A stretch of 64,000 nt of DNA from an uncultured Candidatus Saccharibacteria bacterium (GTDB lineage: Bacteria > Patescibacteriota > Minisyncoccia > Phycocordibacterales > CSBR16-119), in NCBI GenBank assembly GCA_964557535.1, contig CAZLAD010000004.1, forward strand, positions 19,039 to 83,038, written 5' to 3'. Position 1 is the stretch's first letter. Each line of letters starts with the position of its first letter. The notes below the pieces were generated by a model. That model searched no databases. It had not been told where the DNA came from and saw only the letters and a program-made list of their open reading frames with translations. A program made the translations under genes and the position numbers. Shown here piece by piece: positions 43,772-64,000 of this stretch.

Positions 43772-44725
43772 TTAAAACGGATTTTCGGCGAATAATTCTT
43801 GTTTTCTTTTTAAAACCTGTTCATTAACAGCAAATCCTTTACTTAATAATTCCTCTCCTAACCAATGATAACCAGATATTTCTTTGAATTGATTATTAAC
43901 AGTTGATTCAATATAAAAATGCTCCCAATCTTCCAACTGAAGTTTTCCATTTTTAAACAATTCATTAAAAAATGTTTTACCTGAACTAGACTCAATAATC
44001 TGATTATACATACCACCATTTTTAAGAGAGTTAACAAGTATTTTTTTCTGGTTTTCTATACTTATTGATTCTAAATTTTTTTCTAAAAACTTAAGCGGCG
44101 CCTTCGCAGCCTCAAAACTTGGTATGGTTGGCAAGCTATCAATTAATTTTGCAATTAGAAAATCCTTGTCATCATTAGATAAGCTAATTTCCCCAGAATA
44201 AAATTTAGAAAAATCTGTTGGGGAGATATATGTATTTCTATGTTCTTCTTGTAATTTTTGGAAAATTACACATATTTCTCTTAAGAAATTTACTATGTCA
44301 TTTTCTTGATTAGCTAGAGTTGGATCACAAACATGGCCAGCAGTATGACGATCTTGTTTTAAGCTTTTTAATTTTTTTAAAAAATTACTATCGATGGGAT
44401 AAAGAATGTTTAGAAAATTTATAACCTCATCATCATCGAGCTGGTTATATGCATACAAATTTTTTTTATCATATTTTGCTATATCATATTTTTCAGCCTT
44501 AAAAATAGTGTTCCATTTTTGAGTAAAAACATCTTCATCGATTATATACCGTACCTGTTGTATCTTTTCATAAACAAAAAGCATAAAAAGTTTCCAAAAT
44601 AAAATTACAGAAAAATCAAAAATCTTGTTTTCTAGTGAGCCATCAAGCTGGCTACCGTAATTAGAATAGTTAATTATCAATCTTGGCAAATTTTCTATTT
44701 TCTGTTTAAAGTCTTCGTTAATCAT
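43772..44725 (-). CDS. Hypothetical protein embedded between mod and res; candidate HEPN-like (Rx4H) domain protein. The Abi_2/DUF4145-like assignment is tentative.
   Basis: 317-aa ORF. Its ATG overlaps the mod stop (ATGA at 44722-44725) and its stop lies 4 nt before the res start. The only motif I can recognise is LKQDRHTAGH (R-x4-H). It is the most AT-rich gene in the window. Confidence 0.6.
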   Translation of the reverse strand: MINEDFKQKIENLPRLIINYSNYGSQLDGSLENKIFDFSVILFWKLFMLFVYEKIQQVRYIIDEDVFTQKWNTIFKAEKYDIAKYDKKNLYAYNQLDDDEVINFLNILYPIDSNFLKKLKSLKQDRHTAGHVCDPTLANQENDIVNFLREICVIFQKLQEEHRNTYISPTDFSKFYSGEISLSNDDKDFLIAKLIDSLPTIPSFEAAKAPLKFLEKNLESISIENQKKILVNSLKNGGMYNQIIESSSGKTFFNELFKNGKLQLEDWEHFYIESTVNNQFKEISGYHWLGEELLSKGFAVNEQVLKRKQELFAENPF

Positions 44726-46836
44726 AACTTTACATCAATTACTCTGGTAGTGTCGTTTCCGAATATGTCTACGACCTTTATTGCAATCTTGTAGTCTCCT
44801 TTGGGAAGCTCTTTGGGAGCAGAGACCAGTTCAAGATTTCTATTCTTCTTAGTACGGAATGTTTGCCATTCGTTATCGAAGATATAGTCTCCAGTCCAGA
44901 CTTCTTTCTCTTCACCATCCTCAATAACCTTGATGATTTCCTTACGGTCCGTAAAGTTATAATCAACCGCCCAGTAATCAATCCAGTCACTCCATTTCTT
45001 TGTGAGTTGCTCCGGTGGATTACTATTCCCTTCTTTATCAGTGGTTACTTTCCAGATTTGTCCTTGATCTACAATAATTTTTGTTTTATTTTTTTGACCT
45101 GTCAAATCCTCTACTACACTATCTAAAACATTTTGTGAGTAAAATACAGAGAAATCAGTGAGCTCAATTGAAAGCTCTTTCATATTTCCACGTCCAGAAA
45201 TAATTGGTTTGATGTCGATATATGCAACATCATAGAAGTTCACGTGACCACGCTCTACAGCTCGTTTATCGAATACTTCACGAGGAATAATCTTGAAAGC
45301 AACATCAATACCTTCGTCAGCGTATTCACTGAAGTTCATTCCCATTTCGTAGTCAAAGCCGAGAACATCAATCTTAGTGAGATTTTTGCTCTTACATTCA
45401 TCAACAATCTCACGAATAAACTTTGAAGATACAGGGAGGTTGATTGGACCCACCGCAACCAAACGGTCACGCTTTTTACCTACAATATGAGCGAAGCTTT
45501 CTACGGCTTCTGCTTTGTATGCAGAAAGAATAAGTTTGATAAAATCTTTCTCTTTTCGTTCTGCTTGTTTTGCTTTTTCTTCAGCTCGCAAGTCATCGTT
45601 GGTAGTGAGGAAGCTTTCTCGTTCATATTTACCGATGTTCAAAATCTCAAAAGCACGGAAGTCTTTTCCAGCTTTTTTGAGTTCACGCTGAACACCCACC
45701 ATTCGCTTTCGTGATGTATGAATACCAAACTTTCCAAGGTCTGTACCAATCCACTTACGACCAAGCTTTTCTGCAACAGCTAAAGTTGTACCTGAGCCAC
45801 AGAAGAAATCAGCAACTAAATCACCTTGATTAGAAGATGCACTGATAATTCGTTCAAGAAATGCTTCAGGCTTTTGTGTTGGATACTTTACTGCTTCATC
45901 GTGACTAGATACTACAATGTTGAACTCAAAAACATCTGTTGCAGGTTTTCCTTGTTCATTCATATAGGTGTTATAGACCCTACCGTCTGACATTCTGTTT
46001 TCTTTGTACCTACGACCATTTTCATCAACTTTATTGAAACGAGCGAGAGTTGCTTCAGCAAACTCTTCAAACTGCTGATTGAATTGATAATTTTCAGATT
46101 TTGAATAAAAGAAAACAGTATCGTGCTTTCTTGCAAAAAAACGAGTTGAGCTTGCACCTCCGCTATATTTCCAAATAATTTCATTTCTGAAATTATCCTT
46201 ACCAAAAATCTCATCAAGAACCAATCTTATATGTCCTGAAAGTCTCCAGTCACAATGAACATAAATACTTCCATCTTCAGCAAGTAATGAGTGCATCAGC
46301 TTGATACGCTCATAAATCATCGCAATAAAACTATCTGCACCTTTACCCCAAGTGTCTCTATATGCGATTTCTTCAATTACAGATGGTTTTTTAGTGAAGC
46401 TCTCGGCATCTCCACCATCACCAATTTCTATATCCATTGAGAAGTCAGCCCCAACGTCAAACGGTGGGTCGATATAGATGAGCTTGAGCCCACCTTGAGC
46501 CTCAATCTCTTTACGCATAGGACCATTCTTGAGGGATGAGAGGATGAGTTTGTTATCTCCCCAAATGAGCTTATTGGTCCAACCAGTTATTTGTTTACCA
46601 GAGAAATCAAAGAGAGTTCCTTTATCTCCAAACTCTTTACCTTCACGAGGTTCATCAATCTGCTCGATTACTTGGAATGGAAGAACTACGTTAGTGACTT
46701 CGTTAGACTTTCCATTCCAAACAAGCTCAACTTCACGGTCATCTTTGAAGAGCAGGAAGCGATATTTCTCTGGGAGAGGTTTACCAGCTTCTAGGTATTT
46801 TATGATGTCTCGTTTTTCTGAATCCGTAAGTTTCAT
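44722..46836 (-). CDS. mod: Type III R-M Mod subunit (beta-class N6-adenine methyltransferase with a long C-terminal extension)
   Basis: 704 aa. DPPF (IYIDPPFDVG) precedes the AdoMet motif FFCGSGTT, which is the beta-class order. Confidence 0.9.
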   Translation of the reverse strand: MKLTDSEKRDIIKYLEAGKPLPEKYRFLLFKDDREVELVWNGKSNEVTNVVLPFQVIEQIDEPREGKEFGDKGTLFDFSGKQITGWTNKLIWGDNKLILSSLKNGPMRKEIEAQGGLKLIYIDPPFDVGADFSMDIEIGDGGDAESFTKKPSVIEEIAYRDTWGKGADSFIAMIYERIKLMHSLLAEDGSIYVHCDWRLSGHIRLVLDEIFGKDNFRNEIIWKYSGGASSTRFFARKHDTVFFYSKSENYQFNQQFEEFAEATLARFNKVDENGRRYKENRMSDGRVYNTYMNEQGKPATDVFEFNIVVSSHDEAVKYPTQKPEAFLERIISASSNQGDLVADFFCGSGTTLAVAEKLGRKWIGTDLGKFGIHTSRKRMVGVQRELKKAGKDFRAFEILNIGKYERESFLTTNDDLRAEEKAKQAERKEKDFIKLILSAYKAEAVESFAHIVGKKRDRLVAVGPINLPVSSKFIREIVDECKSKNLTKIDVLGFDYEMGMNFSEYADEGIDVAFKIIPREVFDKRAVERGHVNFYDVAYIDIKPIISGRGNMKELSIELTDFSVFYSQNVLDSVVEDLTGQKNKTKIIVDQGQIWKVTTDKEGNSNPPEQLTKKWSDWIDYWAVDYNFTDRKEIIKVIEDGEEKEVWTGDYIFDNEWQTFRTKKNRNLELVSAPKELPKGDYKIAIKVVDIFGNDTTRVIDVKL

Positions 46837-46883
46837 TACTTAGATAATGCCTTAAATGGGTGGTTTTTACAAGAAACGAAAAA

Positions 46884-46907
46884 CCCGGGAGCGCACGCGC
46901 TCCCGGG
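46884..46907. repeat. Perfect hairpin CCCGGGAGCGC-ac-GCGCTCCCGGG in the mod upstream region
   Basis: 11-bp GC stem preceded by AAACGAAAAA. Confidence 0.6.
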
Positions 46908-50583: not shown

Positions 50584-52533
50584 ATGCACAAAAAGAAAAG
50601 CCCTCCACCCCAAAGCCTAACCGGCATCATTCGTGTAAGCCAGCGCGGAACTGGCTATTTTCGTCTACCCGAAGGTCAGGCTGACGCCGAGATAAGTTAC
50701 GACGATTTGGGCACCGCGCTTCATGGCGACACAGTAAAAATTGAAAAAATCGGCGGTAAAATCCGTGACGGTGGTCCGCGCGCAAAAGTCATTGCCGTTA
50801 CAAAAAGAGCCAAGCGCGGATTTGCTGGAGAACTCGTTCACAATGGTCAGGATTTCGCTCTCAAGGCTTCTGACCCGCGCATGTACACACGAATCGTCAT
50901 CCCGAAGAAACTCGCCAAGGGCGCCAAAGTCGGTGACAAAATTTTTGTGACCCTAAGCACCTGGAAAGACATGAAATCAATTCCGCTTGGAAAAGTCGAC
51001 AAAATCCTTGGCCGTGCCGGTGAACACGAGGCCGAGATGCAGGGCATCATCTTAGAAAGGGGGTTCGAGTCCGGCTTCCCCGCCCTAGTTGAACGCGAAG
51101 CCGAAAAGATCAAACGCACACCACTTTCAGACGCAGAAATAAAACGTCGTCGTGACATGCGACACGTAACAACTTTTACCATTGATCCCGAAGACGCCAA
51201 AGACTTTGACGACGCACTATCATTTCGAAAGTTAGAAAGCCCGTCCGGCCAAAGTGAAAAATACGAAATCGGAATTCACATTGCCGACGTTAGTCACTAC
51301 GTAACCCCGGGAACAAATCTCGACAAAGAAGCTCTCGAACGGGCGACATCTGTGTATCTGGTCGACCGGACCATCCCGATGCTCCCAGAAATTCTCTCGA
51401 ACGATTTGTGTAGTCTAAATCCAGGCGTTGACAAGCTCGCCATGAGCGCCGTCTTTGAGATGGATGCAAACGGCCACGTATCAAAAGAATGGTTTGGGAA
51501 AACAATCATCAATTCAGACAAAAGATTCACATATGAAAATGCTCAAAAAGTTCTAGACGACGGAGGAGGCGAGTTTTTTGATGAACTAGACACGCTGAAC
51601 AAAATTGCAAAAAAACTAAATGCTCAAAGGATCAAAGACGGCGCAATTCTCATGGAGTCTGACGAGGTCAAATTCCGGCTCGACGAAAAAGGTAAACCAA
51701 TTTCTGTGTATATAAAAACTCGCGGAGATACAAACAAACTTATCGAAGAATTTATGCTCTTGGCCAATCGCCGAGTCGCCAAATGGGGTGGCAAAGACTC
51801 TTCGGGCAAGGACCGAGTTTTTATCTATCGCATCCATGACACACCAGACAAAGAAAAGGTAAAACTTCTAAAAGATTATCTCAAACTTCTGGGCTTTGAT
51901 TTGGCTGAACAAAAGGGCGTAGTAAAACCACACGAATGGAATCGACTCTTCAAAGATCTCGAAGGCCGAGCCGAACGAGACACTATCCAAACGACCGTCA
52001 TCCGTTCGATGGCCAAAGCAATTTATTCAACCAAAAACATGGGACACTATGGACTTGCTTTTGAATTTTATACCCACTTTACGTCGCCCATCAGACGTTA
52101 TCCAGACATCATCGCCCACAGACTACTTATGGACTACGTAAATGGTGTAAAAATTCCAAATGATCATATTGCCAAATTTCAAAAGATGTCCGAACATTGT
52201 TCCATGCGCGAAGTCGAAGCCGCCGAAGCTGAACGAGCGAGTATCAAATATAAACAAATGGAATACATGGCCGAGAGAATCGGACAAGATTTTGATGGAA
52301 TTATCACGGACATAAACGAATGGGGCATGTACGTCGCGGAAAAGACGACCAAGTCCGAAGGCGTTGTCCGTCTGCGTGATATTACAACCAACTCTTTTGT
52401 CTACGAAGAGAAAAAACTAATGCTAATCGACAAAAAAACCGATACGACTATGCGTATTGGCGACAATGTTCGCATCAAAGTAAAAAATGTGAACATCGAA
52501 AAACAACAAATAGACTATCTTTTGGTATCATAG
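50584..52533 (+). CDS. rnr: Ribonuclease R / RNase II-family exoribonuclease
   Basis: 649 aa. N-terminal cold-shock-like region, RNB catalytic core (DPEDAKDFDDALS, YRIHD, GHYGLAFEFYTHFTSPIRRYPD), C-terminal S1 domain. Confidence 0.9.
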   Translation: MHKKKSPPPQSLTGIIRVSQRGTGYFRLPEGQADAEISYDDLGTALHGDTVKIEKIGGKIRDGGPRAKVIAVTKRAKRGFAGELVHNGQDFALKASDPRMYTRIVIPKKLAKGAKVGDKIFVTLSTWKDMKSIPLGKVDKILGRAGEHEAEMQGIILERGFESGFPALVEREAEKIKRTPLSDAEIKRRRDMRHVTTFTIDPEDAKDFDDALSFRKLESPSGQSEKYEIGIHIADVSHYVTPGTNLDKEALERATSVYLVDRTIPMLPEILSNDLCSLNPGVDKLAMSAVFEMDANGHVSKEWFGKTIINSDKRFTYENAQKVLDDGGGEFFDELDTLNKIAKKLNAQRIKDGAILMESDEVKFRLDEKGKPISVYIKTRGDTNKLIEEFMLLANRRVAKWGGKDSSGKDRVFIYRIHDTPDKEKVKLLKDYLKLLGFDLAEQKGVVKPHEWNRLFKDLEGRAERDTIQTTVIRSMAKAIYSTKNMGHYGLAFEFYTHFTSPIRRYPDIIAHRLLMDYVNGVKIPNDHIAKFQKMSEHCSMREVEAAEAERASIKYKQMEYMAERIGQDFDGIITDINEWGMYVAEKTTKSEGVVRLRDITTNSFVYEEKKLMLIDKKTDTTMRIGDNVRIKVKNVNIEKQQIDYLLVS

Positions 52534-52627: not shown

Positions 52628-55165
52628 GTGAGACCGCAACCTGTCACTATCGGGATGGATTCAGGTTCAAAAAAAAGCTGGGTGAAAGTTTTCTTGTGGA
52701 GCATTATTGCTATTGGTTTTGGACTGGCTTTTTCGGCGCTGGTGGTTCAGGCTTTTAGCGAGATCTCTACGAGAACCAAAACCCAAACGCAGACGAGCGA
52801 AAGCCTCACCGAAACGACAGGAAACAATCTACTAGCACAATTAAAAGACTTTAAATATAGAACTTTTAATAGAGCCAAAAATATTGCCGGGTCTTTGAAT
52901 TTTAGCTACATCACCCAAGCTCCGGTAAGAAAATATCATCTCGAGGACGAATCATTACGCCCTCATGTCGGGGCTTTGGCTTATGTGGTTGGAGATGCCG
53001 ACACCGGACAAATAATCATATCGAAAAACGGGGACACGGTTTCGCCGATAGCATCGGTGACCAAACTAATGACCGCGCTTACATCGCTTGAGAGTCTAGA
53101 CCAAAGCGAAACAACCAAAGTTTCGAGAAAAGCTGTCGAAACTCTGGGTCAAAGTGGTCTATCTCAGGGTGATCGCATGAAAATATCTGACCTTATCTAC
53201 CCACTTCTTCTCGTCTCGTCAAACGATGCTTCGGAAGTTTTGGCCGAACATGCCGGTCGTGAAAAATTCTTGGGCTGGATGAATCAACACGCCAAAGATA
53301 TCGGTATGGAAAATACAAATTTCAATGATCCGAGCGGTCTTTCGGCAAAAAACTCTTCCACGGCCGAAGATTTATTTTCGATGGCTCATTATTTGTTTAC
53401 CAAACATCGCACCGTCTTTAACATCACAAATCTAGAACGTTATAGTGCCGAAGGCAGAACTTGGGTCAATGCCAATCGTTTTTCGAGAAGGGACGATTAT
53501 CTGGGTGGCAAAACCGGCTACACCGACGCCGCTCATCGCACTGGTGTATTTATTTTCTCTAGTCCAATCGCCAACGGAGAAATTCGAAATATCGCTATCG
53601 CGTTACTAAAGACAGACGATCGTGTTTCTGACATCAACAGAATTTTGGATTATGTGAAAGAAAATGTTTATTATTCATACGAAAATTCTACACAAGAAAA
53701 AGAAAGTGAAGTTACTCTTGGATTTGTTGGCGACATCATGCTTGATCGAGGTGTAAAAACTTCAATCATAAAAAACTTTGGTGGAAATTATGAAAAAATA
53801 TTGGCCGAAGCGCCAAGAATTCTCCAGCCAGATATTATGTTTGGAAATCTAGAAGGTCCAATTTCTGACAAAGGCACAAAAATTGGTAGCATCTACTCTT
53901 TTCGAATGGACCCGCTTTCGACCAAGGCTTTGAAAGAAGCTGGATTTGATGTCTTGTCTTTTGCTAACAATCACGTCGGTGATTATTCGACTCCCGCTTT
54001 TCTCGACACACTCGGCAGACTCAAAGAAGAAAACATCCTTTACGTCGGGGCTGGAGAAAACCACGCAGAAGCTTCTCGGGCGACAATCGTGGAAAGAGAC
54101 GGTGTCCGAATTGGATATTTGGCAATGTCGGACGTTGGCCCAGAATTTATGAAAGCGACCGAAGAAAAAATGGGCATACTTTTGGCGAGCGACAAAAATC
54201 TCGACGCTATTGTGAAGGAGGCAAAAGAATTGTCGGATATTTTAGTTGTGTCTGTTCACTGGGGCGACGAATACAAACCTCATAACAAAAAACAAGAAGT
54301 GCTAGCCAAGAGGTTGATTGATAACGGTGCAAATATTGTTGTCGGACATCATCCTCACGTTCCGCAAGATGTCGTAAATTACAAAGACGGCTTGATATTT
54401 TATTCTCTCGGTAATTTTGTTTTTGACCAATATTTCTCAAAAGAAACAATGGGCGGACTTTATGCCGAAGTTGTTGTGACCAAAAAAGGAATAAAAAGCC
54501 ACACCGAAACACCTTTTGTAATAAATGAAAAATATCAACCGATTCTGGGCAACAAAAAGACGGCCTCTTCCCCATCGACGGTATTTGAACGAGGATCTTG
54601 TCCTGTCGGAAACTCCGAAACAAACGAAACTTTTACAAATGTAAGTAATAAAAAATCTGTTGGTAAGTATATTCCAGAAAATCTAGTCGAAATCAGTAAA
54701 GTAATCCCGACAAAAGAAGGTAGAGAAATATGTCTTCTCGAGGAATCCGCCGTGGAACTTGAAAAAATGATTGTTGATGCAAAAAACAACAACGTCGACA
54801 TCTCTATAACTTCTGGTTTTCGAAGTTTTGAAATCCAAGAAATACTTTACGAAAACAGAAACACAACCGCCGAAGAAGAGTCAATTGCTATCCCTGGGCA
54901 TTCGGAACATCAGCTAGGTACAACCATAGATATAACGAGTGCCGAGATTGGAAACGCCTCAGCTAGCACGTTACTTAAAAACACCAAAGCCTTTGAGTGG
55001 ATGTCAGAAAATGCTCACAAATATGGCTTCGTCATGAGCTACCCAGAAAATCGTGATACGGGTTATATTTTCGAACCATGGCATTGGCGATATGTCGGTG
55101 CTGAAACTGCCAAAGAAATCAAAACAAAAAACCTAACAATCCAACAATATTTAGGGGAGATATAG
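52628..55165 (+). CDS. Tri-domain membrane-anchored cell-wall enzyme: S11 PBP5-like DD-carboxypeptidase (SVTK, SSND, KTG) + CapA-like metallophosphoesterase + VanY-like M15 DD-carboxypeptidase
   Basis: 845 aa. S11 motifs SVTKLMTALT / SSNDAS / GKTGYT. CapA-like GDIMLDRG...FANNHVGDY...VHWGDEY...VVGHHPHV. M15 SGFRSFEIQ...HSEHQLGTTIDI...EPWHWRY. Confidence 0.85.
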   Translation: MRPQPVTIGMDSGSKKSWVKVFLWSIIAIGFGLAFSALVVQAFSEISTRTKTQTQTSESLTETTGNNLLAQLKDFKYRTFNRAKNIAGSLNFSYITQAPVRKYHLEDESLRPHVGALAYVVGDADTGQIIISKNGDTVSPIASVTKLMTALTSLESLDQSETTKVSRKAVETLGQSGLSQGDRMKISDLIYPLLLVSSNDASEVLAEHAGREKFLGWMNQHAKDIGMENTNFNDPSGLSAKNSSTAEDLFSMAHYLFTKHRTVFNITNLERYSAEGRTWVNANRFSRRDDYLGGKTGYTDAAHRTGVFIFSSPIANGEIRNIAIALLKTDDRVSDINRILDYVKENVYYSYENSTQEKESEVTLGFVGDIMLDRGVKTSIIKNFGGNYEKILAEAPRILQPDIMFGNLEGPISDKGTKIGSIYSFRMDPLSTKALKEAGFDVLSFANNHVGDYSTPAFLDTLGRLKEENILYVGAGENHAEASRATIVERDGVRIGYLAMSDVGPEFMKATEEKMGILLASDKNLDAIVKEAKELSDILVVSVHWGDEYKPHNKKQEVLAKRLIDNGANIVVGHHPHVPQDVVNYKDGLIFYSLGNFVFDQYFSKETMGGLYAEVVVTKKGIKSHTETPFVINEKYQPILGNKKTASSPSTVFERGSCPVGNSETNETFTNVSNKKSVGKYIPENLVEISKVIPTKEGREICLLEESAVELEKMIVDAKNNNVDISITSGFRSFEIQEILYENRNTTAEEESIAIPGHSEHQLGTTIDITSAEIGNASASTLLKNTKAFEWMSENAHKYGFVMSYPENRDTGYIFEPWHWRYVGAETAKEIKTKNLTIQQYLGEI

Positions 55166-55223: not shown

Positions 55224-55571
55224 ATGGCAATCAAGAAAAGTGCTAAGTCCCTCGCGGACAACTCGACCAAGAAGGATGGGCCCACCCACCCGAAAAAGAG
55301 CCCACGGAAGCGCAAATCGCCAGTGAGCACTCGGCCATTCCGAGTGACCCGTGGCTTCGCCAAGAATCGTCGGGTGAAGTTCTGGATGGACCTCCTGATG
55401 ACCTTCGAACCGGTAGATCAGAAAGCGTGCCTCGAGGCAATCAGCTGGCGCATACCGAAAGACAACGGTCGCAACAAAACAGCTGAACAGGCACTGAAGT
55501 CCCTCTTGCGGAACCATGTGGTGGTGCCCATGGACGCTATCGTGCCGGCGCTCAAGAAGCGCTCACTCTGA
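55224..55571 (+). CDS. Hypothetical basic protein, GC-richer
   Basis: 115-aa ORF followed by the terminator at 55630-55667. Confidence 0.45.
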   Translation: MAIKKSAKSLADNSTKKDGPTHPKKSPRKRKSPVSTRPFRVTRGFAKNRRVKFWMDLLMTFEPVDQKACLEAISWRIPKDNGRNKTAEQALKSLLRNHVVVPMDAIVPALKKRSL

Positions 55572-55629
55572 CCACGCACGATCAACCGGCTACTCATGAA
55601 AAAGTGAGCCGGCAAAGCCATGCATGCAT

Positions 55630-55667
55630 GAAGCCCCCGACCTCGTCGGGGGCTTCTTCTTTTTTTA
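55630..55667 (+). terminator. Intrinsic terminator GAAGCCCCCGAC-ctc-GTCGGGGGCTTC plus T-run
   Basis: 12-bp stem followed by TTCTTTTTTT. Confidence 0.7.
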
Positions 55668-55720
55668 CTTCGCGTAATTTTCGGCTTCGGAGAATTTGAT
55701 GGAGGAGCTTGGAACCGCCA
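55661..55720. repeat. Direct repeat copy 1 (about 60 bp, about 85% identical to 56891-56950, which is the smc 3' end)
   Basis: TTTTTTACTTcGCGTAaTTTTCgGCtTCgGAGAATTTGAT... aligned position by position to the second copy (36 of 41 identities in the core). Confidence 0.8.
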
Positions 55721-55849
55721 AAACAAAGTCATTTTCCAAGAATATTCAGAGAGGTTGTAGAAAAAAAATCTAAAAATTAAATCATCCTAAAATGAAGAAT
55801 GGTTCTAGAATACTGAGCCATTATATAACCTTGACATTAGCTATCTTCT

Positions 55850-56857
55850 ATGATAGAAGTAAATCAAACCAGAACAAACATGCGAACCGAAGATCTTCTA
55901 GACACACCTGATCTCGAGGAAAGAAGTGACTCTTTGATACCAGGCTTTAGAAGATTTTACTTCGAAAGCATCAAAGGGATTCGACTCCTGTCTCGCGACG
56001 AAGAATACGATCTGGGCGTAAAAAGCTCAAAAGGTGATAAAGTAGCGACCCAGAAGCTTGTCTACCATAACCTGAAATTCGTGGCCTGGAAAGTTCTCGA
56101 ATTTCTTGGATACCTAAGATACGACCGAGCTCTGTCTTTCGAAGACCTATTCCAACACGGGTCAATCGGACTCTGGAAAGCTGCAAAAAACTACAGACCC
56201 AGGAAAGACGTTAAATTCTTGAGCTATGCTGTCTTCAGCGTTGATGAAGCAATCATGACAGCAATCAGGAACAACCGTTTGATCAGAGTAAAGTCTGTGG
56301 GTCGCAAGTTAATCAAGAAATACGACCATGCTTTCGATCTCATTACCCATGATGTCGAAACCAACTACGCGCTGATTGAAGACGTGGCTGACGAAATGAA
56401 AATCGACGAGGAAAAAGTGCGGAAGATTTGCCTTTGGAAAGAACTTCTCCGTGTCGATAACCTAGATCAGCTTGCGTCTGAAGAAGATGGCGCCATCTGT
56501 TTCGATATCCTCGACAAAGATGCGCTAGAGCCAGACTCAGCTGCCCACGAAACGAGCCTGAAGGAGTTTCTTGAGATTTACTTGGGGAAGCTTTCCAACC
56601 TGACTACCAAGGAACAAGAAATAGTGACGATGTATTTCGGGCTAGCTGATCAAGAGAAGGTGAGCATGGAAGATATCGCCAAGATGTACGACCTACAAAG
56701 AGAGCGCGTGCGGCAAATAAAGGAGAAAGCACTACGGAGACTTCGATGGGGTGCTGGTCGATTACTCTTGGAGGTGTACCTTGATGATCCTTATGTGAGC
56801 GAGAGGATCAAGCACAGATTAGCCATGAGCCTGCGGAGTATTTTCGTAAGCCATTGA
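55850..56857 (+). CDS. Sigma-70-family RNA polymerase sigma factor (alternative, about 38 kDa)
   Basis: 335 aa. Region 2 (LVYHNLKFVAWKV...IGLWKAAKNY), region 3, region 4 HTH (MEDIAKMYDLQRERVRQIKEKALRRLR). Confidence 0.85.
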   Translation: MIEVNQTRTNMRTEDLLDTPDLEERSDSLIPGFRRFYFESIKGIRLLSRDEEYDLGVKSSKGDKVATQKLVYHNLKFVAWKVLEFLGYLRYDRALSFEDLFQHGSIGLWKAAKNYRPRKDVKFLSYAVFSVDEAIMTAIRNNRLIRVKSVGRKLIKKYDHAFDLITHDVETNYALIEDVADEMKIDEEKVRKICLWKELLRVDNLDQLASEEDGAICFDILDKDALEPDSAAHETSLKEFLEIYLGKLSNLTTKEQEIVTMYFGLADQEKVSMEDIAKMYDLQRERVRQIKEKALRRLRWGAGRLLLEVYLDDPYVSERIKHRLAMSLRSIFVSH

Positions 56858-56862
56858 GCAAG

Positions 56863-56898
56863 AACCGCTGACCCTTCGGGTCGGCGGTTCTGTTTTTT
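56863..56898. terminator. Bidirectional terminator GAACCGCTGACCC-ttcg-GGTCGGCGGTTC plus T-run
   Basis: 13-bp stem between the convergent sigma gene and smc. Confidence 0.7.
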
Positions 56899-56950
56899 AC
56901 TTGGCGTAGTTTTCAGCGTCTGAGAATTTGATTGATAGGAGTTTTGATCC
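56891..56950. repeat. Direct repeat copy 2 (includes the last 14 codons of smc)
   Basis: See copy 1 at 55661-55720. Confidence 0.8.
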
Positions 56951-59134
56951 GCCGTCAGATCCAATTGTTACACCGTAAATGACATCGGCACGAGACATTG
57001 TTTCTCTGTTGTGAGTGACGGTGATAAGTGAAGAATATTTCGAAAGAATTTCGATCATATCGCCATAACGTTTAGAATTGGCTTCGTCGAGTGCCGCATC
57101 CGTTTCATCGAGAACCAAAAATGGCGGCGGGTTAACTTGAGTCATGGCAAAGACAAGCGCGATAGAAGTAAGTGAGCGTTCGCCACCAGAAAGCATGGCC
57201 AGGTCTTTCACCTTCTTTTGTGGCAAAGTCACGTTAATCTCAATACCATAATCAAGTCTCTCTTCCTCGTCCGCATCCGAACTTTCTCCAGACTCATCGT
57301 CTTCTTCCGAATCATTTTTCTTTGATCCCTGAACAATGCTAGACAGATAAGCTGCGCCACCACCAAACATAAGTTTGAAAAATTCCTCAAAACGAACATT
57401 GATTTTCTCCATGCCTTCTTTGAATTCTCTGTCCAGAGTTTCTTTAAGATCGTCAATAAGTGTACGTAAATTGGAAATACTTTTTTCTAAATCTTCGAGC
57501 TCTTTGACCAAGAAATTATCTCGTTCTGTAATACTTTGATATTCTTTCATTACGTCATCGCCAGAGCCAGTACCCGCGTCTTCGAGTTTGATTTTGAGAC
57601 GCTCAATGTTGTGACGCATCTCGTCAGTGACTTCGACAATCGAAATATCACTTGTTCGAAATTGTAAAATTTCTTGACCAACCAAAACGACAGCTTCTTT
57701 GACTCCTTCTTCAAAAGAAGCTTTTCGCTTTTTGAAAAATTCATTTCGGTTTTGGAGAATTTCTTCTTCGGCCAAAATCTTGTTCTTTTTATTTTCAAGA
57801 GCAAATTTTTCTTCTTGGTCTTTGAACATCGTCACTCTATTTGACTCAATCGAAGAACGCAAAGAATTCATTTTTTCCAAATGAACTTTTCTTACTCTTT
57901 CAATTTCTTCTAGCTGAGCCGCGACTTCACGCTTTGTAACTTCTAGATCCTTGAAAGAGTTTGGTTTGTTTTCAGCTTTATTTTGTTTAAATCTCTGGCC
58001 AAAGTCCGTTATAGCTTTTCTCAAATACTTGAGATTTGATTTTATAACTTCGAGGTTTGAATCCGCCAAAGATCTTTCGAGAGTGCTTTCCATCTCACTA
58101 ATGAACGTCTCGAGGTCGCTTGATTTGATTGAAATACTGTCTGGTTTATCAGTTGTCGATCGATTCTCAAATTCGATCATACCTTCGATACGTCCAAGCT
58201 TTCTGGATAAATCATCTTTGGTTCGTTCAAGCGAAACAATTTCTTTTTCCAAATTACTGATTTCGATATTTTTTGAAGACTCGAAATCATTTGTTGAGAC
58301 ATCTTTCATCGAAGCTAATTTGACTTCAATTTCTTTTAGTTCGCGTTCTCGATCGTGATTTTTACTTTTCAGGAAAGCTTCTTCGTTTTGTAAAAACTTT
58401 TCTTCTGATTTGAAAAAGGTTAAATAAAGTTTAGAAAGTTCACTTCGAAGCTCGACGCTTTTTTCAACTTTTTCAACTTGTTTCTTGAGATATTTTATAT
58501 GTGGCGCAAGTTCACGACGAAGCATTCCGACTTCTTTCATGTTCTCTTCGGTCTTTTCAAGTTTCTTGTGCGATTCTTTGAGTTTGTTTTGATAAACTTT
58601 GAGACCTAAAGCATCCTCAATCATGATCCGACGATCTTTGGCTGAACTTGTGAGAATCCTGTCGGCTTGACCCTGAGAAATAATATGGTGACCCGAAGCA
58701 CCGATATTTACCGAAGCCAACATTTCGACAATGTCTTTCAAACGAACAGCTGAATTGTTGATGTAGTAGATATTATTTCCGTCGGCAAAGACTTCACGCT
58801 TCAAAATTATTTCGTCGAAATCTAGATTGATTGGCTCGGAACGTTCACCCAATTTAAAAACGCGATCTTTGTTATCAAAAGTTATTTCGACTGACGCACG
58901 TGAGCCTTTTGGTAAATCTTTTGAGCCTTTGAATATAAGGTCCGAGCCCGACTTTCCACGCAGAGATTTCATTGATTGTTCGCCAAGGACAAACCGGAAA
59001 GCTTCAACAACGTTTGATTTTCCAGATCCGTTTGGCCCGACGATTCCAACAACCGGCACGTCAAAATCCAGTCTGCTTTTTTTGGCAAACGACTTAAACC
59101 CGAGAAGTTCAATCCTCTTTAATTTCACCCCCAT
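56897..59134 (-). CDS. smc: SMC-family chromosome segregation ATPase (short, 745 aa)
   Basis: N-terminal Walker A GPNGSGKSN, C-terminal signature LSGGERSLTSIALVFAM and Walker B LVLDETDAALD, long coiled-coil middle, rnc-smc synteny. Confidence 0.85.
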   Translation of the reverse strand: MGVKLKRIELLGFKSFAKKSRLDFDVPVVGIVGPNGSGKSNVVEAFRFVLGEQSMKSLRGKSGSDLIFKGSKDLPKGSRASVEITFDNKDRVFKLGERSEPINLDFDEIILKREVFADGNNIYYINNSAVRLKDIVEMLASVNIGASGHHIISQGQADRILTSSAKDRRIMIEDALGLKVYQNKLKESHKKLEKTEENMKEVGMLRRELAPHIKYLKKQVEKVEKSVELRSELSKLYLTFFKSEEKFLQNEEAFLKSKNHDRERELKEIEVKLASMKDVSTNDFESSKNIEISNLEKEIVSLERTKDDLSRKLGRIEGMIEFENRSTTDKPDSISIKSSDLETFISEMESTLERSLADSNLEVIKSNLKYLRKAITDFGQRFKQNKAENKPNSFKDLEVTKREVAAQLEEIERVRKVHLEKMNSLRSSIESNRVTMFKDQEEKFALENKKNKILAEEEILQNRNEFFKKRKASFEEGVKEAVVLVGQEILQFRTSDISIVEVTDEMRHNIERLKIKLEDAGTGSGDDVMKEYQSITERDNFLVKELEDLEKSISNLRTLIDDLKETLDREFKEGMEKINVRFEEFFKLMFGGGAAYLSSIVQGSKKNDSEEDDESGESSDADEEERLDYGIEINVTLPQKKVKDLAMLSGGERSLTSIALVFAMTQVNPPPFLVLDETDAALDEANSKRYGDMIEILSKYSSLITVTHNRETMSRADVIYGVTIGSDGGSKLLSIKFSDAENYAK

Positions 59135-59280
59135 ATTTTACCACACCAGGCAAAGAAAAATCCTCATAAAAAGGACTCTCGCAAGAAAAAGCCCGCCTTT
59201 TGAAGGGCGGGCTTTTCGAGAGGGAGAAGTTTGTCGTTTACAGACAAAACTTCGTGCCTTTTTATGAGTATTTTTCTTTG

Positions 59281-59973
59281 CTAATCCAACCACTTTTTTA
59301 GCTTGAGTGCTTCCTGAGCCGCAGCCTGCTCACCTTCTTGTTTGGATTTGCCGGAGCCTTTGGCAATAAGTTCATCTCCAAAAAATACACCGATAGTAAA
59401 ATTCTTATCATGGTCTGGGCCGGTTTCTTCAAGCACTTCATAGCGCGGCGTAATGTTCACAATCTCTTGAGCTTTTTCTTGGATTAGAGACTTGGAATCG
59501 CGCCAAAGTTTCTGAGCAACGATTTTTTCAATCTTGCCAAACAAAGCATCGGCTATGAATTTCTTGGCCGCATCATAACCAGCGTCTAGAAATATCGCGC
59601 CGATAACTGATTCGAAAGTGTTAGCGAGAATGTAGTCACGTGCCTTGCCTGTATCTTTGGCTTCGCCTTTGGACAAAAGAAGATAGTCGTTCATGCCAAG
59701 CTCCACCGCCGCAGCAGAAATCGAAACGGTATTAACGACAGCCGCACGGATAGCGGTTAGGTCGCCCTCTGATTTACCTGGGTAGCGTGCAAAAAGCTCT
59801 TCAGTTGTGACGAGTTCAAGCACCGCATCGCCCAAAAATTCTAGGCGTTCATTGTGAGACCCTGCACCAGCGTTTTCGTTTATATATGATCGATGAGTAA
59901 AAGCTTGTTTTAGTAGATCCTTGTCTTTGAAGTCTAAGTTATTTTCGGTTTCAAATTTCGCGAAGTTCGGCAT
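59281..59973 (-). CDS. rnc: Ribonuclease III
   Basis: 230 aa. ERLEFLGDAVLELV signature, C-terminal dsRBD. Confidence 0.95.
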   Translation of the reverse strand: MPNFAKFETENNLDFKDKDLLKQAFTHRSYINENAGAGSHNERLEFLGDAVLELVTTEELFARYPGKSEGDLTAIRAAVVNTVSISAAAVELGMNDYLLLSKGEAKDTGKARDYILANTFESVIGAIFLDAGYDAAKKFIADALFGKIEKIVAQKLWRDSKSLIQEKAQEIVNITPRYEVLEETGPDHDKNFTIGVFFGDELIAKGSGKSKQEGEQAAAQEALKLKKWLD

Positions 59974-59979
59974 AATTTT

Positions 59980-60879
59980 TTATTTATTGGTAACGTAGTC
60001 GATTGACTGCGCCAGAAGCGGCAGTATATCGTCGTAGGTGTTTATACTTTCTAATTCGGAGAGCTTGAACCACCTGGCGTCATCGAGTCCGCCGTTTGAA
60101 TGAAGGTCCATCTCCTTCCAGGGCGTCTTTACCAGATAGTAGCTAACCTGTTTTAGGATTTTACCTTTTTCCGGATGAGATGCAACATATTCATTTTCAC
60201 CCAAAAGTTTAACGATTTCGACATCCAGTCCGGTCTTTTCTTTTATCTCGCGGATTGCGCCCTCTTCGGAAGTTTCATTTCCTTCCACTCCACCCTTGGC
60301 TAGCGTCCAATAACCAAAAACATCGTGCACGAGCCCGACCAAAGTTTCTCCATCTTTCTCTGTAATGATTACTCCGCCGGCTTTCTTCTCTTTTGGAAGT
60401 TTTTCTGGATCGTCTTCGTTATTTGCGCGTTTCTTTGGAGTGATCTGATCTTTGCCTGGTTCCCCCATTTCTTTGTAAACTGCGCCCAAAACACCGTTGA
60501 CGAATTTGCCAGATTTCTCGCCACCGAAAGTTTTTCCAAGTTCGATGGCTTCGTTGATAGCAACCTTTGGCGGAACCTCATCTTTGTTTGAAAACAAAAG
60601 TTCAGCCAGACCAATGCGCAAAACATTGCGATCAACAATCGCAATTTTATCCATTGGCCAATCAGGCGCGGCTTTTTCTATGATCTCATCGATGAGAACA
60701 TATTTTTTTAAAACCTGATCAAGCAGGTGTTTGGTAAAGGAGACTTCTTTCATTCCTGGCGCAAACTCGGCAAGATTGCGTTCGAGATATTCTGGAGCAG
60801 ATTCATTTTTCTGCCCATTAAAATCCCACTCAAAAAGTGTTTGTAAAACGACTGATCGTGCAAGGTGCCTATTGGCCAT
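59980..60879 (-). CDS. nusB: NusB antitermination factor fused to a C-terminal NUDIX hydrolase domain
   Basis: aa 1-140 are NusB-like (ARSVVLQTLFEWDF...KFVNGVLGAVYKEMGE). aa about 165-299 carry a Nudix box GGVEGNETSEEGAIREIKEKTGL. Confidence 0.8.
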   Translation of the reverse strand: MANRHLARSVVLQTLFEWDFNGQKNESAPEYLERNLAEFAPGMKEVSFTKHLLDQVLKKYVLIDEIIEKAAPDWPMDKIAIVDRNVLRIGLAELLFSNKDEVPPKVAINEAIELGKTFGGEKSGKFVNGVLGAVYKEMGEPGKDQITPKKRANNEDDPEKLPKEKKAGGVIITEKDGETLVGLVHDVFGYWTLAKGGVEGNETSEEGAIREIKEKTGLDVEIVKLLGENEYVASHPEKGKILKQVSYYLVKTPWKEMDLHSNGGLDDARWFKLSELESINTYDDILPLLAQSIDYVTNK

Positions 60880-60937
60880 AATGATAAGAACAAATTCTAT
60901 TAAAAGACTCTAATATTCTAACAAAGAAATAACTTAA

Positions 60938-61022
60938 GTGCGAGGTTTGATTGTGATTTTCCGACCGTTTGGTCTGGTTAGGTTAGGAGGAAGGAAAATT
61001 ACAAGCAAACCGAGCGCGAGCC
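60938..61022 (+). ncRNA. Copy B of the repeated ~80-nt structured element, immediately 3' of rpmF
   Basis: GTGC-GA-GGTTTG ... CAAACC-GA-GCGC closing helix with a U.G wobble on the plus strand. Internal GACC-GTTT-GGTC hairpin and GGTTAGGTTAGGAGG tract. Confidence 0.45.
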
Positions 61023-61024
61023 AA

Positions 61025-61216
61025 TTACTTGGCTTTTGATTTCTTGTCGCTAGATTTAACAACTGCCAAGACTTGTTTGCCTCGGTATTTGCCAGTTTCG
61101 AGTGAGACGCGATGACGAAGATGAGGAGTATTTGTCTCCTTATCGATAACGATATTCGCCATCGGTGCTCTATGATGAGACCTACGATTTTTCGTATGGG
61201 CTCTTGTGTGTCGCAT
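61025..61216 (-). CDS. rpmF: 50S ribosomal protein L32 (start at MRHTRAHTKNRRSHH; the ORF track extends to 61336)
   Basis: KNRRSHHRAP...THLRH...YRGKQV matches the L32 consensus (K.S.SRR..RRAHHAL......TG..HLRHH....G.YRG..V). Confidence 0.85.
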   Translation of the reverse strand: MRHTRAHTKNRRSHHRAPMANIVIDKETNTPHLRHRVSLETGKYRGKQVLAVVKSSDKKSKAK

Positions 61217-61294
61217 TCGGACTACCATGGCAACCAGTATACGGAAAACAGGGATTTTTGCAAGTTTTTGAGCTTTTACACAATTGTCTGGATT

Positions 61295-61579
61295 ATGGAG
61301 CCGTGGTATCCTTGGCCCATGGATGGTCTTGAACAAAAAATAGACAAGCTAATAAATACTATTGAAGGAATCGACAAAAAACTCGACGGCCATATTGAAT
61401 TTGTCGCTGAACGCATGACGAAGATCGAAGACCGTCTTGATGGCATGTCGACTAAAGCTGATTTGCAAAATGCCAAACAAGAACTCTTTGATAAGATTTC
61501 CGAAAATAAATACGAGATCCAGGGCAAAGTTAATGATCACGAAGTTCGTATCCAAAAATTAGAAACTAACATCGCCTAA
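61295..61579 (+). CDS. Hypothetical coiled-coil protein (start at MEPWYPWPMDGLEQKIDK)
   Basis: The trimmed 94-aa version of ORF 61112..61579 avoids overlap with rpmF. Heptad-like composition. Confidence 0.4.
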   Translation: MEPWYPWPMDGLEQKIDKLINTIEGIDKKLDGHIEFVAERMTKIEDRLDGMSTKADLQNAKQELFDKISENKYEIQGKVNDHEVRIQKLETNIA

Positions 61580-61580
61580 T

Positions 61581-61769
61581 ATGACCCCAAATAATTTACA
61601 TAATTTGATGACACAGATGACCCAAGAGCAGAAGTCTCTCTGGCGCATCGAACAAAACTATATAAAAGAAGCCGGTAGCGACGTCGAGAAAGCTTTCTGG
61701 GAAAGCCTCCACAACGAAAAGAAAATGCATATCGAGGAATTGCGGAAATTGATTAAAGAAAATATTTAG
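61581..61769 (+). CDS. Hypothetical small protein
   Basis: 62-aa ORF followed by a weak hairpin plus T-run at 61776-61805. Confidence 0.3.
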   Translation: MTPNNLHNLMTQMTQEQKSLWRIEQNYIKEAGSDVEKAFWESLHNEKKMHIEELRKLIKENI

Positions 61770-61805
61770 CTAAACAAAAAACCCTATTCGGGTATTTTTT
61801 GTTTT

Positions 61806-63020
61806 CTAGATAATTTCAACTCTTTTCTTTATTTCTATATTCATAGATTTTATAAATTCGACGAAATCTTTCTTGGCTTTTTTTCTTAGCAGCCAACCAG
61901 GAAGCTTATCGCGATATTCGTCAGAAATTTTTCCATAAAAAGATGCGTACTTTTGTATTAATTCCGCTTCTTTTTTCTTTACCTCTTCTGGCATTTCAGA
62001 ACTGCTAAAACTACGCGCGTCAGAGGATGCACCCCAACTCTCTTCCACATCTTTTAATAGTCTATCGACTTCGGCAATATTTATAAGTTCCTCTTTGACC
62101 TGCTGGACAAACAAATTAATAGCAGACGTTCGTAACTCCAAGACTAAACCCCAATCTAAAGATTTATACAGAACATCGAGTTTCTGCTGCATGTCTCTTT
62201 CCACCAGATCAAATTCCCCACGATCCCATTTTAAAATTTCTTCTTTTATTTTAGATCGCAAAGAACCAATATCAACGCCTATCGAACCCATGGATTCAAT
62301 AATCAATTTTATTTCTTCCTTTTTCTTTCCTTTGAGATCAAACAAAGAATCTAGAGATTCTTCTTTGTTGGAAATCTTCTCAAAAAAATCTATTTTTTCA
62401 TCTTCAGACATTTCACGAATATCTGGAATCTCTTCGAGAATCTGATCTTTAACGACAGTTTCTCCATGCTCTTGAATCCCTTGAATAGCTTCCGACATCT
62501 TAGCGGAATAAAGTTGTGAAGATTTTAATGTATCGATTTTTTCTTTTGGGGCGTTGTAGAGACGGATTGATTGATCATATAGTTTATCCATGAGCTTCTC
62601 GGTCATCGGATTTTGGAGGAGTGAAAAAACATACCCACGCACTGTTCCCTCGAGTGGTCTATTACGTGGCGACCCTTTAAGACCAACACGATCTAGCCCT
62701 TCAAAAACACCCAAGCTTTTTAAAAGTTCATATTTAGATTTCTTATCCAAAGAATAATAGTCATCGAAACTCTGGAACCCAAAAGTTTTTAAGGCTCCAA
62801 CAAATTCTTTTGGGGTTAAAAGTGAGCCTGGCCATGCCCAATTACCTTTTTCTGCCATTTCAAGCCACTCTTCATCATCAAAAGCAGGTAGTGGTTTAAT
62901 TTCTCCAGATCTTTCCTTCTTCATCGTCTCGGTCCAATATTCGGGCATATCAACCAAAGGCTGTTCAGTATCTTTAGCTTTTTCTTTCTTTGCTCCAGGT
63001 TTTGGAATATTTCCTTCCAT
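61806..63020 (-). CDS. Hypothetical protein (404 aa, acidic, helical) immediately downstream of gyrB
   Basis: Long ORF 4 nt after the gyrB stop. No family recognised. Confidence 0.55.
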   Translation of the reverse strand: MEGNIPKPGAKKEKAKDTEQPLVDMPEYWTETMKKERSGEIKPLPAFDDEEWLEMAEKGNWAWPGSLLTPKEFVGALKTFGFQSFDDYYSLDKKSKYELLKSLGVFEGLDRVGLKGSPRNRPLEGTVRGYVFSLLQNPMTEKLMDKLYDQSIRLYNAPKEKIDTLKSSQLYSAKMSEAIQGIQEHGETVVKDQILEEIPDIREMSEDEKIDFFEKISNKEESLDSLFDLKGKKKEEIKLIIESMGSIGVDIGSLRSKIKEEILKWDRGEFDLVERDMQQKLDVLYKSLDWGLVLELRTSAINLFVQQVKEELINIAEVDRLLKDVEESWGASSDARSFSSSEMPEEVKKKEAELIQKYASFYGKISDEYRDKLPGWLLRKKAKKDFVEFIKSMNIEIKKRVEII

Positions 63021-63023
63021 AAT

Positions 63024-64000
63024 TTAAATATCAATCTCCGCCATTTTGGCATTTGATTGGATGAAAGATTTTCGTGGCGGAACTTCGGATCCCATCAAGA
63101 TGTCGAAAGTCTTGTCCGCCTCGACGGCGTCTTCGATTTTGACTTGAAGGAGTATTCGGTTGTTCACGTCCATCGTCGTTTCTTTGAGTTCGTCTGGGTT
63201 CATTTCTCCAAGACCCTTGTAACGCTGAACAGAAAACTTCGGAACTTTCTTCTCTGTACCCTCTTCGGACGCAGATTCATTTTCTTCTTCGGCTTCTTTC
63301 ATGTCATTTTCGCCAATACCTTCGGCTTTCAAGAATTTATTTTTATCTTCATCAGAATACAAGTACGTAACGGTCTTGCCTTTTGTTATTTTGTAAAGTG
63401 GTGGTTGAGCGATGTAGATATATCCCGCTTCGATGACTGGTTTGAAATATCGGTAGAAAAGCGTGAGCAAAAGTGTTCGAATGTGCGCACCGTCAACGTC
63501 GGCATCAGTTGCGATGATGATCTTGTGATAGCGGATGTCTTCGATGTTAAACGTATCGCCGATTGAAGTTCCGAGCGCGATAACAAGAGATTTTACTTCT
63601 TTGGAATCAAGCATCTTGTCGAGGCGTGCGCGTTCAACGTTTAGGATTTTACCTTTGAGCGGAAGCACGGCCTGAGTGCGACGATCGCGTCCCATTTTCG
63701 TCGAGCCACCAGCCGAGTCTCCCTCGACGATGAACAGTTCTGATTCTGACGGGTCTTTTGATTGACAGTCGGCGAGTTTTCCTGGAAGGGTTAGGCCTTC
63801 GAGCGCACCTTTGCGTAGGACCGAGTCTTTGGCAGCTTTGGCCGCTTTGCGGGCTTTTAGAGCAAGCACGGCTTTGTTCAAGATTGAGCGAGCTTCGTCA
63901 GGATTTTCTTCGAGGAATGTCGAGAACGCGGCCGAGAACACTGTTTCAACGGCTCCACGAGCTTCGGGACTTCCGAGTTTGTCCTTGGTCTGACCCTCGA
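63024..64000 (-). CDS. gyrB: DNA gyrase subunit B, C-terminal part (N-terminus beyond right edge)
   Basis: TOPRIM and tail motifs [55 protein letters not shown]-terminal AEIDI. The reading frame stays open to 64000 ([16 protein letters not shown]...). Confidence 0.95.

Follow-up and report, generated by a model that had tools for sequence, protein, structure and literature searches.

A membrane-anchored fusion of S11, CapA-like and LdcB-like domains at a core-genome slot of Patescibacteria, predicted to mature peptidoglycan stem peptides

What would a bacterium with a small genome do with a serine peptidase, a CapA-like enzyme and a zinc peptidase on one polypeptide chain? The question is raised by a gene in a 64,000-nucleotide stretch of DNA (positions 19,039 to 83,038 of contig CAZLAD010000004.1, assembly GCA_964557535.1; hereafter the window) from an uncultured bacterium deposited as Candidatus Saccharibacteria. 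A reading made from the sequence alone had described the product of this gene as three enzyme domains behind an N-terminal transmembrane (TM) anchor, and the open reading frame (ORF), the Pfam domains and the hydrophobic segment all agree with that description. Our analysis indicates that the gene is rather probably a vertically inherited core gene of Paceibacteria type, encoding a membrane-anchored, extracytoplasmic enzyme that would mature the cell's own peptidoglycan stem peptides. The dedicated peptidoglycan-remodelling function proposed in the sequence-only reading is plausible. The action of the middle, CapA-like domain is more tentative and is considered separately below.

The tri-domain chain and its two peptidase domains

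The gene at 52628-55165 (+) is a single uninterrupted ORF, and its parts are as follows.

52628..55165, + strand: whole ORF of the tri-domain protein gene, from the ORF list; 845 amino acids (aa) counted from GTG, or 836 aa from the probable true start, ATG 52655
52682..52756, + strand: N-terminal signal-anchor or transmembrane helix, residues ~19-43
52763..52924, + strand: poorly conserved stalk rich in T, Q and S, residues 46-99; mean identity 16%, AlphaFold2 confidence (pLDDT) below 50 at residues 47-98
52961..53542, + strand: Peptidase_S11 serine DD-peptidase domain, Pfam residues 112-305, fold ~100-351
53714..54430, + strand: PGA_cap domain (CapA/PgsA/MslH-like, calcineurin fold), Pfam residues 363-601, fold ~358-640
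54548..54694, + strand: linker, residues 641-689; mean identity 39%, holding the invariant Cys658
54668..55156, + strand: VanY/LdcB-type M15B zinc peptidase domain, Pfam residues 705-824, LdcB alignment 681-843

Because Met10 is nearly invariant in the alignment of relatives, and because a 100% identical database protein of 836 aa (P0001) begins there, the true start is likely the in-frame ATG at 52655 rather than the GTG at 52628. Residues ~19-43 form the only strongly hydrophobic stretch of the protein (the sole Kyte-Doolittle window above 1.6), and the AlphaFold2 model places a long helix at residues 17-49. Since this N-terminal segment is the sole hydrophobic peak, everything C-terminal of it should lie outside the membrane, which is also the location that an S11 domain of penicillin-binding type requires.

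A Pfam scan, judged by the curated gathering scores, returned three non-overlapping domains, all far above those scores: Peptidase_S11 (PF00768; 133.5 bits against a cut-off of 27.6, E 1e-38), PGA_cap (PF09587; 226 bits against 27, E 6.5e-67, profile positions 1-255 of 255) and VanY (PF02557; 124.6 bits against 25, E 2.8e-36). The scan confirmed the three families and boundaries proposed earlier, and every S11, PGA_cap and VanY motif quoted with them was found, each at one place. No NCBIfam model was reached at its own curated cut-off; the best partial matches were to models for LdcB, VanY-A, a DD-endopeptidase and the MslH epimerase. The domains of the whole-protein AlphaFold2 model are confidently predicted (mean pLDDT 87), and a Foldseek search of this model against the PDB returned MslH first, then S11 enzymes, then the LdcB of Bacillus anthracis (BaLdcB).

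Conservation was assessed in two alignments, one of 20 co-linear tri-domain relatives at 44-75% identity and one of 66 sequences that includes two-domain forms lacking VanY. The PGA_cap and S11 domains are the best-conserved parts of the protein (mean identity 62% and 60%), followed by the VanY domain (52%) and by the stalk and linkers (16-39%). Two cysteines, Cys658 in the linker (54599-54601) and Cys702 at the start of the VanY-type domain (54731-54733), are also invariant in the 20 tri-domain relatives; they may be paired in a disulfide outside the membrane, which would hold the linker in place.

The serine peptidase carries the complete S11 triad noted earlier, with SVTK at 143-146, SSND at 197-200 and KTG at 295-297, all within the Pfam match. 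S143, K146, S197, N199, K295 and G297 are invariant among the 66 sequences; T296 is invariant in the 20-sequence alignment only and is absent even from the near-invariant list of the larger one. The nearest solved structure is Bacillus subtilis DacB (PDB 3mfd, E 1.4e-28), and the Foldseek matches of the domain are DacB, K15 and PBP5. Two results count against a simple carboxypeptidase: the C-terminal beta-sandwich domain of PBP5-type enzymes (PF07943) was not matched by Pfam in the tri-domain protein, and the best NCBIfam match of the S11 domain is the DD-endopeptidase model. Because that C-terminal domain is absent and the short forms PBP7, K15 and Lmo2812 are resembled (NCBIfam, Foldseek), the S11 domain may be either a carboxypeptidase or an endopeptidase.

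In the zinc peptidase, the motifs SGFRS (729-733, with Q737), HSEHQLGTTID (758-768) and EPWHWRY (816-822) contain R732, H761, D768, E816 and H819, all invariant in the 20 relatives and corresponding to the H-x6-D...H zinc triad, the Glu of ExxH and the carboxylate-binding Arg. LdcB uses a zinc triad of His153, Asp160 and His207 together with Arg120 and Glu204, and takes D-Ala4 off tetrapeptides once DacA has taken D-Ala5 (PMC4087270); these five LdcB residues all have invariant equivalents here. Among solved chains, Bacillus LdcB scores 102 bits against 57-61 for VanY/VanXY chains, and a family-profile search gave 130 bits for Bacillus LdcB against 89 for chains deposited as D-alanyl-D-alanine carboxypeptidases or VanXY. 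The LdcB structures 4mph, 4jid and 4ox3 (B. anthracis, B. subtilis) match at E 1e-27 to 1e-28, and BaLdcB is found by Foldseek with a TM score of 0.88 and 35% identity. By these comparisons the nearest family of the zinc domain is LdcB, although the domain is not a curated NCBIfam member. The earlier description of two DD-carboxypeptidases, one serine-based and one zinc-based, therefore stands for the Pfam families but probably not for the DD specificity of the zinc domain, whose closest structures are the LD-carboxypeptidases of Bacillus.

The strongest competing explanation makes the zinc domain a genuine DD-carboxypeptidase of VanY type, so that the chain would carry two redundant or differently regulated activities removing D-Ala5, the serine one penicillin-sensitive and the zinc one penicillin-insensitive. 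The Pfam family is indeed VanY, and two scores also count against the LdcB assignment: the NCBIfam models for LdcB (NF041194, 83.5 bits against a cut-off of 275) and VanY-A/F/M (81.8 bits) are nearly tied and both below their cut-offs, and some chains deposited as D-alanyl-D-alanine carboxypeptidases, presumed to be VanY-type, outscore the LdcB of Streptococcus pneumoniae. Bacillus LdcB is nonetheless clearly closest by sequence (102 against 61 bits), by profile and by structure, and the exchange of the zinc domain for YkuD in sister variants suits a partner that uses tetrapeptides. YkuD needs tetrapeptide donors and would use the product of the S11 domain. Because the Bacillus LdcB chains are closest and YkuD, also tetrapeptide-using, replaces the zinc domain in those variants, sequential trimming from penta- to tetra- to tripeptide appears more likely than two redundant DD-carboxypeptidases, and we regard the VanY-type explanation as unlikely.

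Family, genomic slot and proposed role

A search of 5.8 billion proteins yielded 1133 relatives at E <=1e-10, and the best 120 clusters were sorted by domain order (CAP denotes the PGA_cap domain).

S11-CAP-VanY, as in the window: 44 clusters
S11-CAP, ~630 aa, some with an N-terminal YkuD LD-transpeptidase domain (~780 aa): 38 clusters
S11-VanY-CAP, permuted: 24 clusters
S11-CAP-CAP-VanY, ~1180 aa: 13 clusters
CAP-VanY: 1 cluster

The architecture of the window protein is thus present in databases, at 44 of these 120 clusters. Both PGA_cap copies of the two-copy forms retain the key residues, the second being a divergent paralogue. Because domain content and order vary at the slot described below while PGA_cap stays, we read PGA_cap as the constant core of the family and the three kinds of stem-peptide enzymes (S11, LdcB-like and YkuD) as its exchangeable partners. 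In a genome scan with one genome per species, relatives were detected in 216 genomes; the best 80, which were inspected, are all Patescibacteria metagenome-assembled genomes (MAGs), RAAC4_OD1_1 included, and are labelled Paceibacteria, Parcubacteria, Nomurabacteria, Wolfebacteria, Minisyncoccia or generically 'Saccharibacteria'. A possible spread beyond Patescibacteria, suggested by the 'Burkholderiales' label of protein P0110, was rejected, as its contig has the Patescibacteria slot and neighbours; judged from these, P0110 is a mislabelled member of the lineage.

The neighbour proteins of the window were compared by tblastn with the 80 genome loci (up to 8 kb on each side), and most loci share the order trmD <- KH <- rpsP | RNase R -> X | SMC <- RNase III <- NusB-Nudix, where X is the slot occupied by the tri-domain gene. 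RNase R lies upstream in 67/80 loci and SMC downstream in 65/80. The upstream neighbour in the window is the following.

50584..52533, + strand: RNase R gene (Pfam RNB, CSD2, S1), conserved and co-directional with the tri-domain gene

In loci L048 and L083 the stop of RNase R either overlaps the beginning of the gene that follows or lies directly against it, and no strong terminator was found between RNase R and the tri-domain gene in the window; because of this overlap or abutment in several genomes and the lack of a strong terminator, the two genes likely share an operon. The slot holds the full tri-domain form in L001-L007, S11-CAP in L008-L015, and CAP-VanY with no room for an S11 domain in L016-L053; in RAAC4 its product is a 542-aa TM-CAP-VanY protein. 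A further variant of the slot encodes YkuD-S11-CAP with a polysaccharide deacetylase gene (Polysacc_deac_1) directly after it. The statement that the three domains are normally separate proteins consequently holds for model bacteria but not for this lineage, in which fusion is the norm and occurs at a conserved core-genome slot.

The window also encodes the D-Ala-D-Ala ligase Ddl, MreB and MreC, and pentapeptide stems ending in D-Ala-D-Ala are therefore expected. On such stems, the S11 domain would strip the terminal D-Ala5 (penta- to tetrapeptide) or, alternatively, cleave DD cross-links, and the LdcB-like zinc domain would next strip D-Ala4 (tetra- to tripeptide); in the sister variants, a YkuD LD-transpeptidase in place of the zinc domain would use the same tetrapeptide. 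The PGA_cap domain, as a metal-dependent enzyme of MslH/CapA type, would have that stem peptide as its substrate too and would act where an alpha-carboxylate is free: on the gamma-linked iso-Glu, whose local chemistry matches that of poly-gamma-glutamate, or on the residue at the C-terminus. Its reaction would most likely be a C-alpha epimerisation, which is the least secure of the three steps. Weighing against a tightly coupled pathway, the predicted template-modelling score (pTM) of the whole-protein model is 0.45, so that the relative placement of the domains is not confident and no substrate channelling can be claimed, and the existence of CAP-VanY forms without S11 indicates that the three activities are not obligatorily coupled.

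The enzyme might instead be aimed at the wall of a host or neighbour, for attack or for harvest of D-Ala. Patescibacteria are thought to be episymbionts, and Paceibacteria that parasitise archaea highly express extracellular proteins with peptidoglycan-binding domains (PMC10936435). Ddl is present in the window, and an episymbiont possessing it might need D-Ala. S11, LdcB and YkuD enzymes all release D-Ala, which all three partner types could therefore supply. The protein, however, is anchored in the membrane by a long hydrophobic segment at its N-terminus and carries no additional module for targeting or for binding peptidoglycan; its core syntenic slot, probable operon with RNase R and housekeeping neighbours are typical of self-maintenance; and some hosts of Paceibacteria are archaea without murein (PMC10936435). 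A host-directed role is on balance improbable, and maturation of the cell's own wall is the reading that we carry forward.

The PGA_cap domain

The CapA/PGA_cap motif set reported earlier is present (GDIMLDRG 368-375, NNHVGDY 447-453, HWGDEY 544-549 and GHHPH 573-577) within a full-length Pfam match, and D369, E409, N448, H449, D452, H544, E548, H575 and H577 are invariant among the 66 sequences. The only sequence relative of the domain in the PDB is MslH (8gq9), at ~20% identity. A model of the domain alone is of high confidence (pLDDT 95, pTM 0.93), and its top Foldseek match is again MslH (E ~3e-21, TMq 0.80); the next fold neighbours are 5'-nucleotidases and YmdB-type phosphatases (E 1e-10 to 1e-9, TMq 0.53-0.6). 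MslH is a Ca-dependent epimerase of a peptide C-terminal residue that employs the dyads His88/Asp91 and His295/Asp11 and the metal ligands Glu44, Asn87, His259 and His261 (PMC10406935). In a HMMER alignment, N448, H449, D452, H544 and H577 correspond to MslH N87, H88, D91, H259 and H295. Both MslH dyads have invariant counterparts, H449/D452 and H577/D369, with D369 of the second placed by motif order.

Work on related proteins offers a link from this chemistry to the wall. According to a proposal by the discoverers of MslH, Glu residues of poly-gamma-glutamate are epimerised by CapA (PMC8179263). When pgsA is missing, the poly-gamma-glutamate of B. subtilis contains L-Glu only (PMC6029982), and the substrate proposed for CapA/PgsA is a gamma-glutamyl residue whose alpha-carboxylate is free (PMC8179263, PMC6029982). 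A search of the literature for proof of epimerase activity in PgsA returned indirect evidence only. Gamma-linked Glu carries a free alpha-carboxylate on the carbon that is epimerised, and the same is true of the iso-Glu of stem peptides and of a C-terminal D-Ala. Taken together with the fusion pattern, the likeness to MslH leads us to propose, tentatively, that the PGA_cap domain has a peptide-directed and probably epimerising activity on the stem peptide. The more specific proposal, that it is an extracytoplasmic metal-dependent epimerase editing the stereochemistry of stem residues (gamma-linked iso-Glu or C-terminal Ala) after export, beside the fused trimming enzymes, is less likely than not.

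Several observations speak against an epimerase. D369 and E409 were paired with Asp11 and Glu44 of MslH by motif order and spacing alone, as the direct phmmer alignment to the MslH N-terminus covered residues 74-115 only. Among the Ca ligands, N448 and H544 align and E409 is placed by position, but His261 is replaced by Gly546, with the invariant Glu548 two residues on. With the NCBIfam model for MslH (NF038314) the protein reaches 73 bits, the cut-off being 700, and it is hard to see what a trimming pathway would gain from an epimerase. The gene context of peptides that are made by the ribosome and modified after translation (RiPPs), to which lasso peptides belong, was not seen, the neighbours being housekeeping genes.

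The sequence-only reading had called this domain a CapA-like metallophosphoesterase; its CapA family membership is borne out by the PGA_cap match, while the phosphoesterase part is not. A phosphoesterase could act on a wall phosphodiester or pyrophosphate, such as a teichoic-acid-like linkage or a lipid-PP carrier, or could scavenge extracellular nucleotides, and the calcineurin-like fold and the nucleotidases and phosphatases that follow MslH in the structural search are in keeping with this. However, the Pfam scan gave no match to Metallophos (PF00149); motif I reads G-D369-I-M, lacking the His of the classical DxH, and motif II reads N-L-E409-G, with Glu instead of the bridging Asp. MslH is also closer by ~10 orders of magnitude in E and by a TMq of 0.80 against ~0.55-0.6, and the fused partners all work on the stem peptide and none on phosphoesters. 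We accordingly rate a phosphoesterase as quite unlikely.

Its family name and its homology to CapA/PgsA might suggest that the domain helps to make or anchor a wall polymer resembling poly-gamma-glutamate, as the sequence-only reading had also ventured. This claim found no support: PgsB and PgsC were absent from the larger ORFs scanned across the 64-kb window, whole genomes not having been surveyed, and from those related loci in which Pfam calls were made gene by gene (L081, L083 and L084; L082 repeats L081). The neighbours identified in the 80 loci are housekeeping genes, though these loci were compared with the window's housekeeping genes only and PgsB/PgsC were not specifically searched for there. 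A role in such a polymer is very unlikely, and an epimerase acting on the stem peptide remains our tentative preference for the domain.

The fusion itself, with three intact catalytic domains on one chain, is genuine by the evidence of its conservation, and an artefact in which a frameshift or assembly error joined neighbouring genes, the possibility that the sequence-only reading had raised against itself, was examined and rejected as having practically no chance of being correct, given that the identical protein P0001 is already public (under two source labels, lgn and ena, with 3 member sequences on 1 contig), that more than 80 clusters, dozens of them independent and of the same architecture, contain multi-domain relatives that are 44-75% identical and differ by few indels, and that the domain junctions are colinear in alignment A1 (899 columns for 845 aa).

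Wider window and comparison with known systems

The window as a whole is a housekeeping stretch that encodes UvrABC, TGT, RpoB/C, DnaG, RpoD and ribosomal proteins. At its left end (1 to ~2450, - strand, running off the left edge, and 3134-5008, - strand) are the genes of two large proteins, secreted or on the surface, that carry a C-terminal PG_binding_1 domain, one acidic and repeat-rich and the other rich in PD40 repeats. Proteins of this kind are reported to be highly expressed in Paceibacteria that parasitise archaea (PMC10936435). The two lie ~48 kb from the fusion gene, and no evidence was found for the possible link to it that the sequence-only reading had suggested; within 6 kb of the slot, the neighbours called in L081 and L083 include no peptidoglycan-binding genes, the 80 genome loci not having been searched for them. 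At ~41000-46900 (-), an island of low GC content (0.35-0.38 against ~0.43-0.46 elsewhere) contains a ResIII helicase/endonuclease, a 317-aa ORF without a Pfam match and an N6/N4 DNA methylase, and is probably a horizontally acquired type III-like restriction-modification system. Small PaaX_M/Cas2-like proteins (PF20803) are encoded at 20294-20851 (-) in the window and at 7482-7868 in L083, the latter beside the fusion slot; no CRISPR context was seen.

Between the fusion gene and SMC, the interval 55224-56857 encodes a 115-aa basic ORF with no Pfam match and an extra sigma-70-type gene with regions 2 and 4 only, both absent at this position in L001 and L002; a strong terminator-like hairpin follows each (55630-55656 and 56861-56891). 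Further on, a NusB-NUDIX fusion protein (59980-60879, -) occupies the same position across the lineage, in L081 and L083 as well, and is another lineage-specific fusion of unrelated functions. The 4.9 kb at 56887-61801, comprising SMC, RNase III, NusB-Nudix and ~900 nucleotides more, share 97.9% DNA identity with L002 (CAZSFS010000002.1), whereas the flanks share only 70-83% (fusion gene 69.9%, RNase R 72.5%, 63025-64000 83%), a pattern suggestive of recent exchange, by recombination or transfer, between two species that are otherwise distinct. At the edge of this tract and directly downstream of gyrB, a 404-aa ORF without a Pfam match (61806-63020, -) is an exact insertion relative to L002 (61801/63025 correspond to L002 15844/15846) and is possibly a mobile gene. 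The suspicion that gyrB is split at the window's right edge was rejected, as the frame stays open to the window end.

The role of CapA/PgsA proteins has been unclear for decades, and the one relative to have been characterised, MslH, epimerises a peptide. That a CapA-like domain is repeatedly fused, at one slot, to three enzymes acting on stem-peptide ends provides a concrete and testable substrate hypothesis for the family, and hints at cell-wall peptides as possible substrates of CapA-like enzymes. The tri-domain family would also mark a lineage-specific enzyme of wall maturation in Patescibacteria. Little is known of the envelope biology of this very large and almost wholly uncultured group. 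Should the middle domain prove to be an epimerase, it would represent a new class of cell-wall-modifying reaction and the first functional context of CapA/PgsA type beyond poly-gamma-glutamate and lasso peptides; should it have no new chemistry, the protein would be an unusual yet unsurprising fusion of known wall enzymes.

Databases already contain the same architecture, named automatically ('CapA family protein', 'cap protein' and 'D-alanyl-D-alanine carboxypeptidase/LdcB'); these Patescibacteria MAG entries share family and architecture with the window protein and consist of names alone, with no analysis. No publication describing a PGA_cap fusion in Patescibacteria or the candidate phyla radiation (CPR) was found, in a text search made noisy by 'CapA' also matching 'capacity'.

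Among known systems, the closest functional parallel is the DacA and LdcB pair of S. pneumoniae and B. subtilis, which belongs to the same two families with all catalytic residues, is extracytoplasmic, and trims stem peptides from penta- to tetra- to tripeptide (PMC4087270). Here, in contrast, a single polypeptide would carry both activities, separated by a CapA-like domain; its S11 part is without the C-terminal domain of PBP5, and its LD specificity is putative. For the middle domain, the nearest solved structure is MslH, the epimerase of the C-terminal Trp of a lasso peptide (PDB 8GQ9), with which the Asn-His...Asp motif and the equivalents of His259 and His295 are shared; MslH, however, is cytoplasmic and encoded in a RiPP cluster with its partner MslB1, whereas the domain described here would be extracytoplasmic, is only ~20% identical and has Gly in place of His261. 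CapA/PgsA of the Bacillus PgsBCA system is of the same Pfam family over its full length, membrane-anchored and extracytoplasmic, but is not fused to peptidoglycan peptidases as here, where no PgsB/PgsC was found nearby; the biochemistry of CapA is itself unproven. Each domain family is therefore known, and the combined logic of S11 and LdcB is known from separate proteins of Firmicutes; their fusion around a CapA-like domain is a new arrangement.

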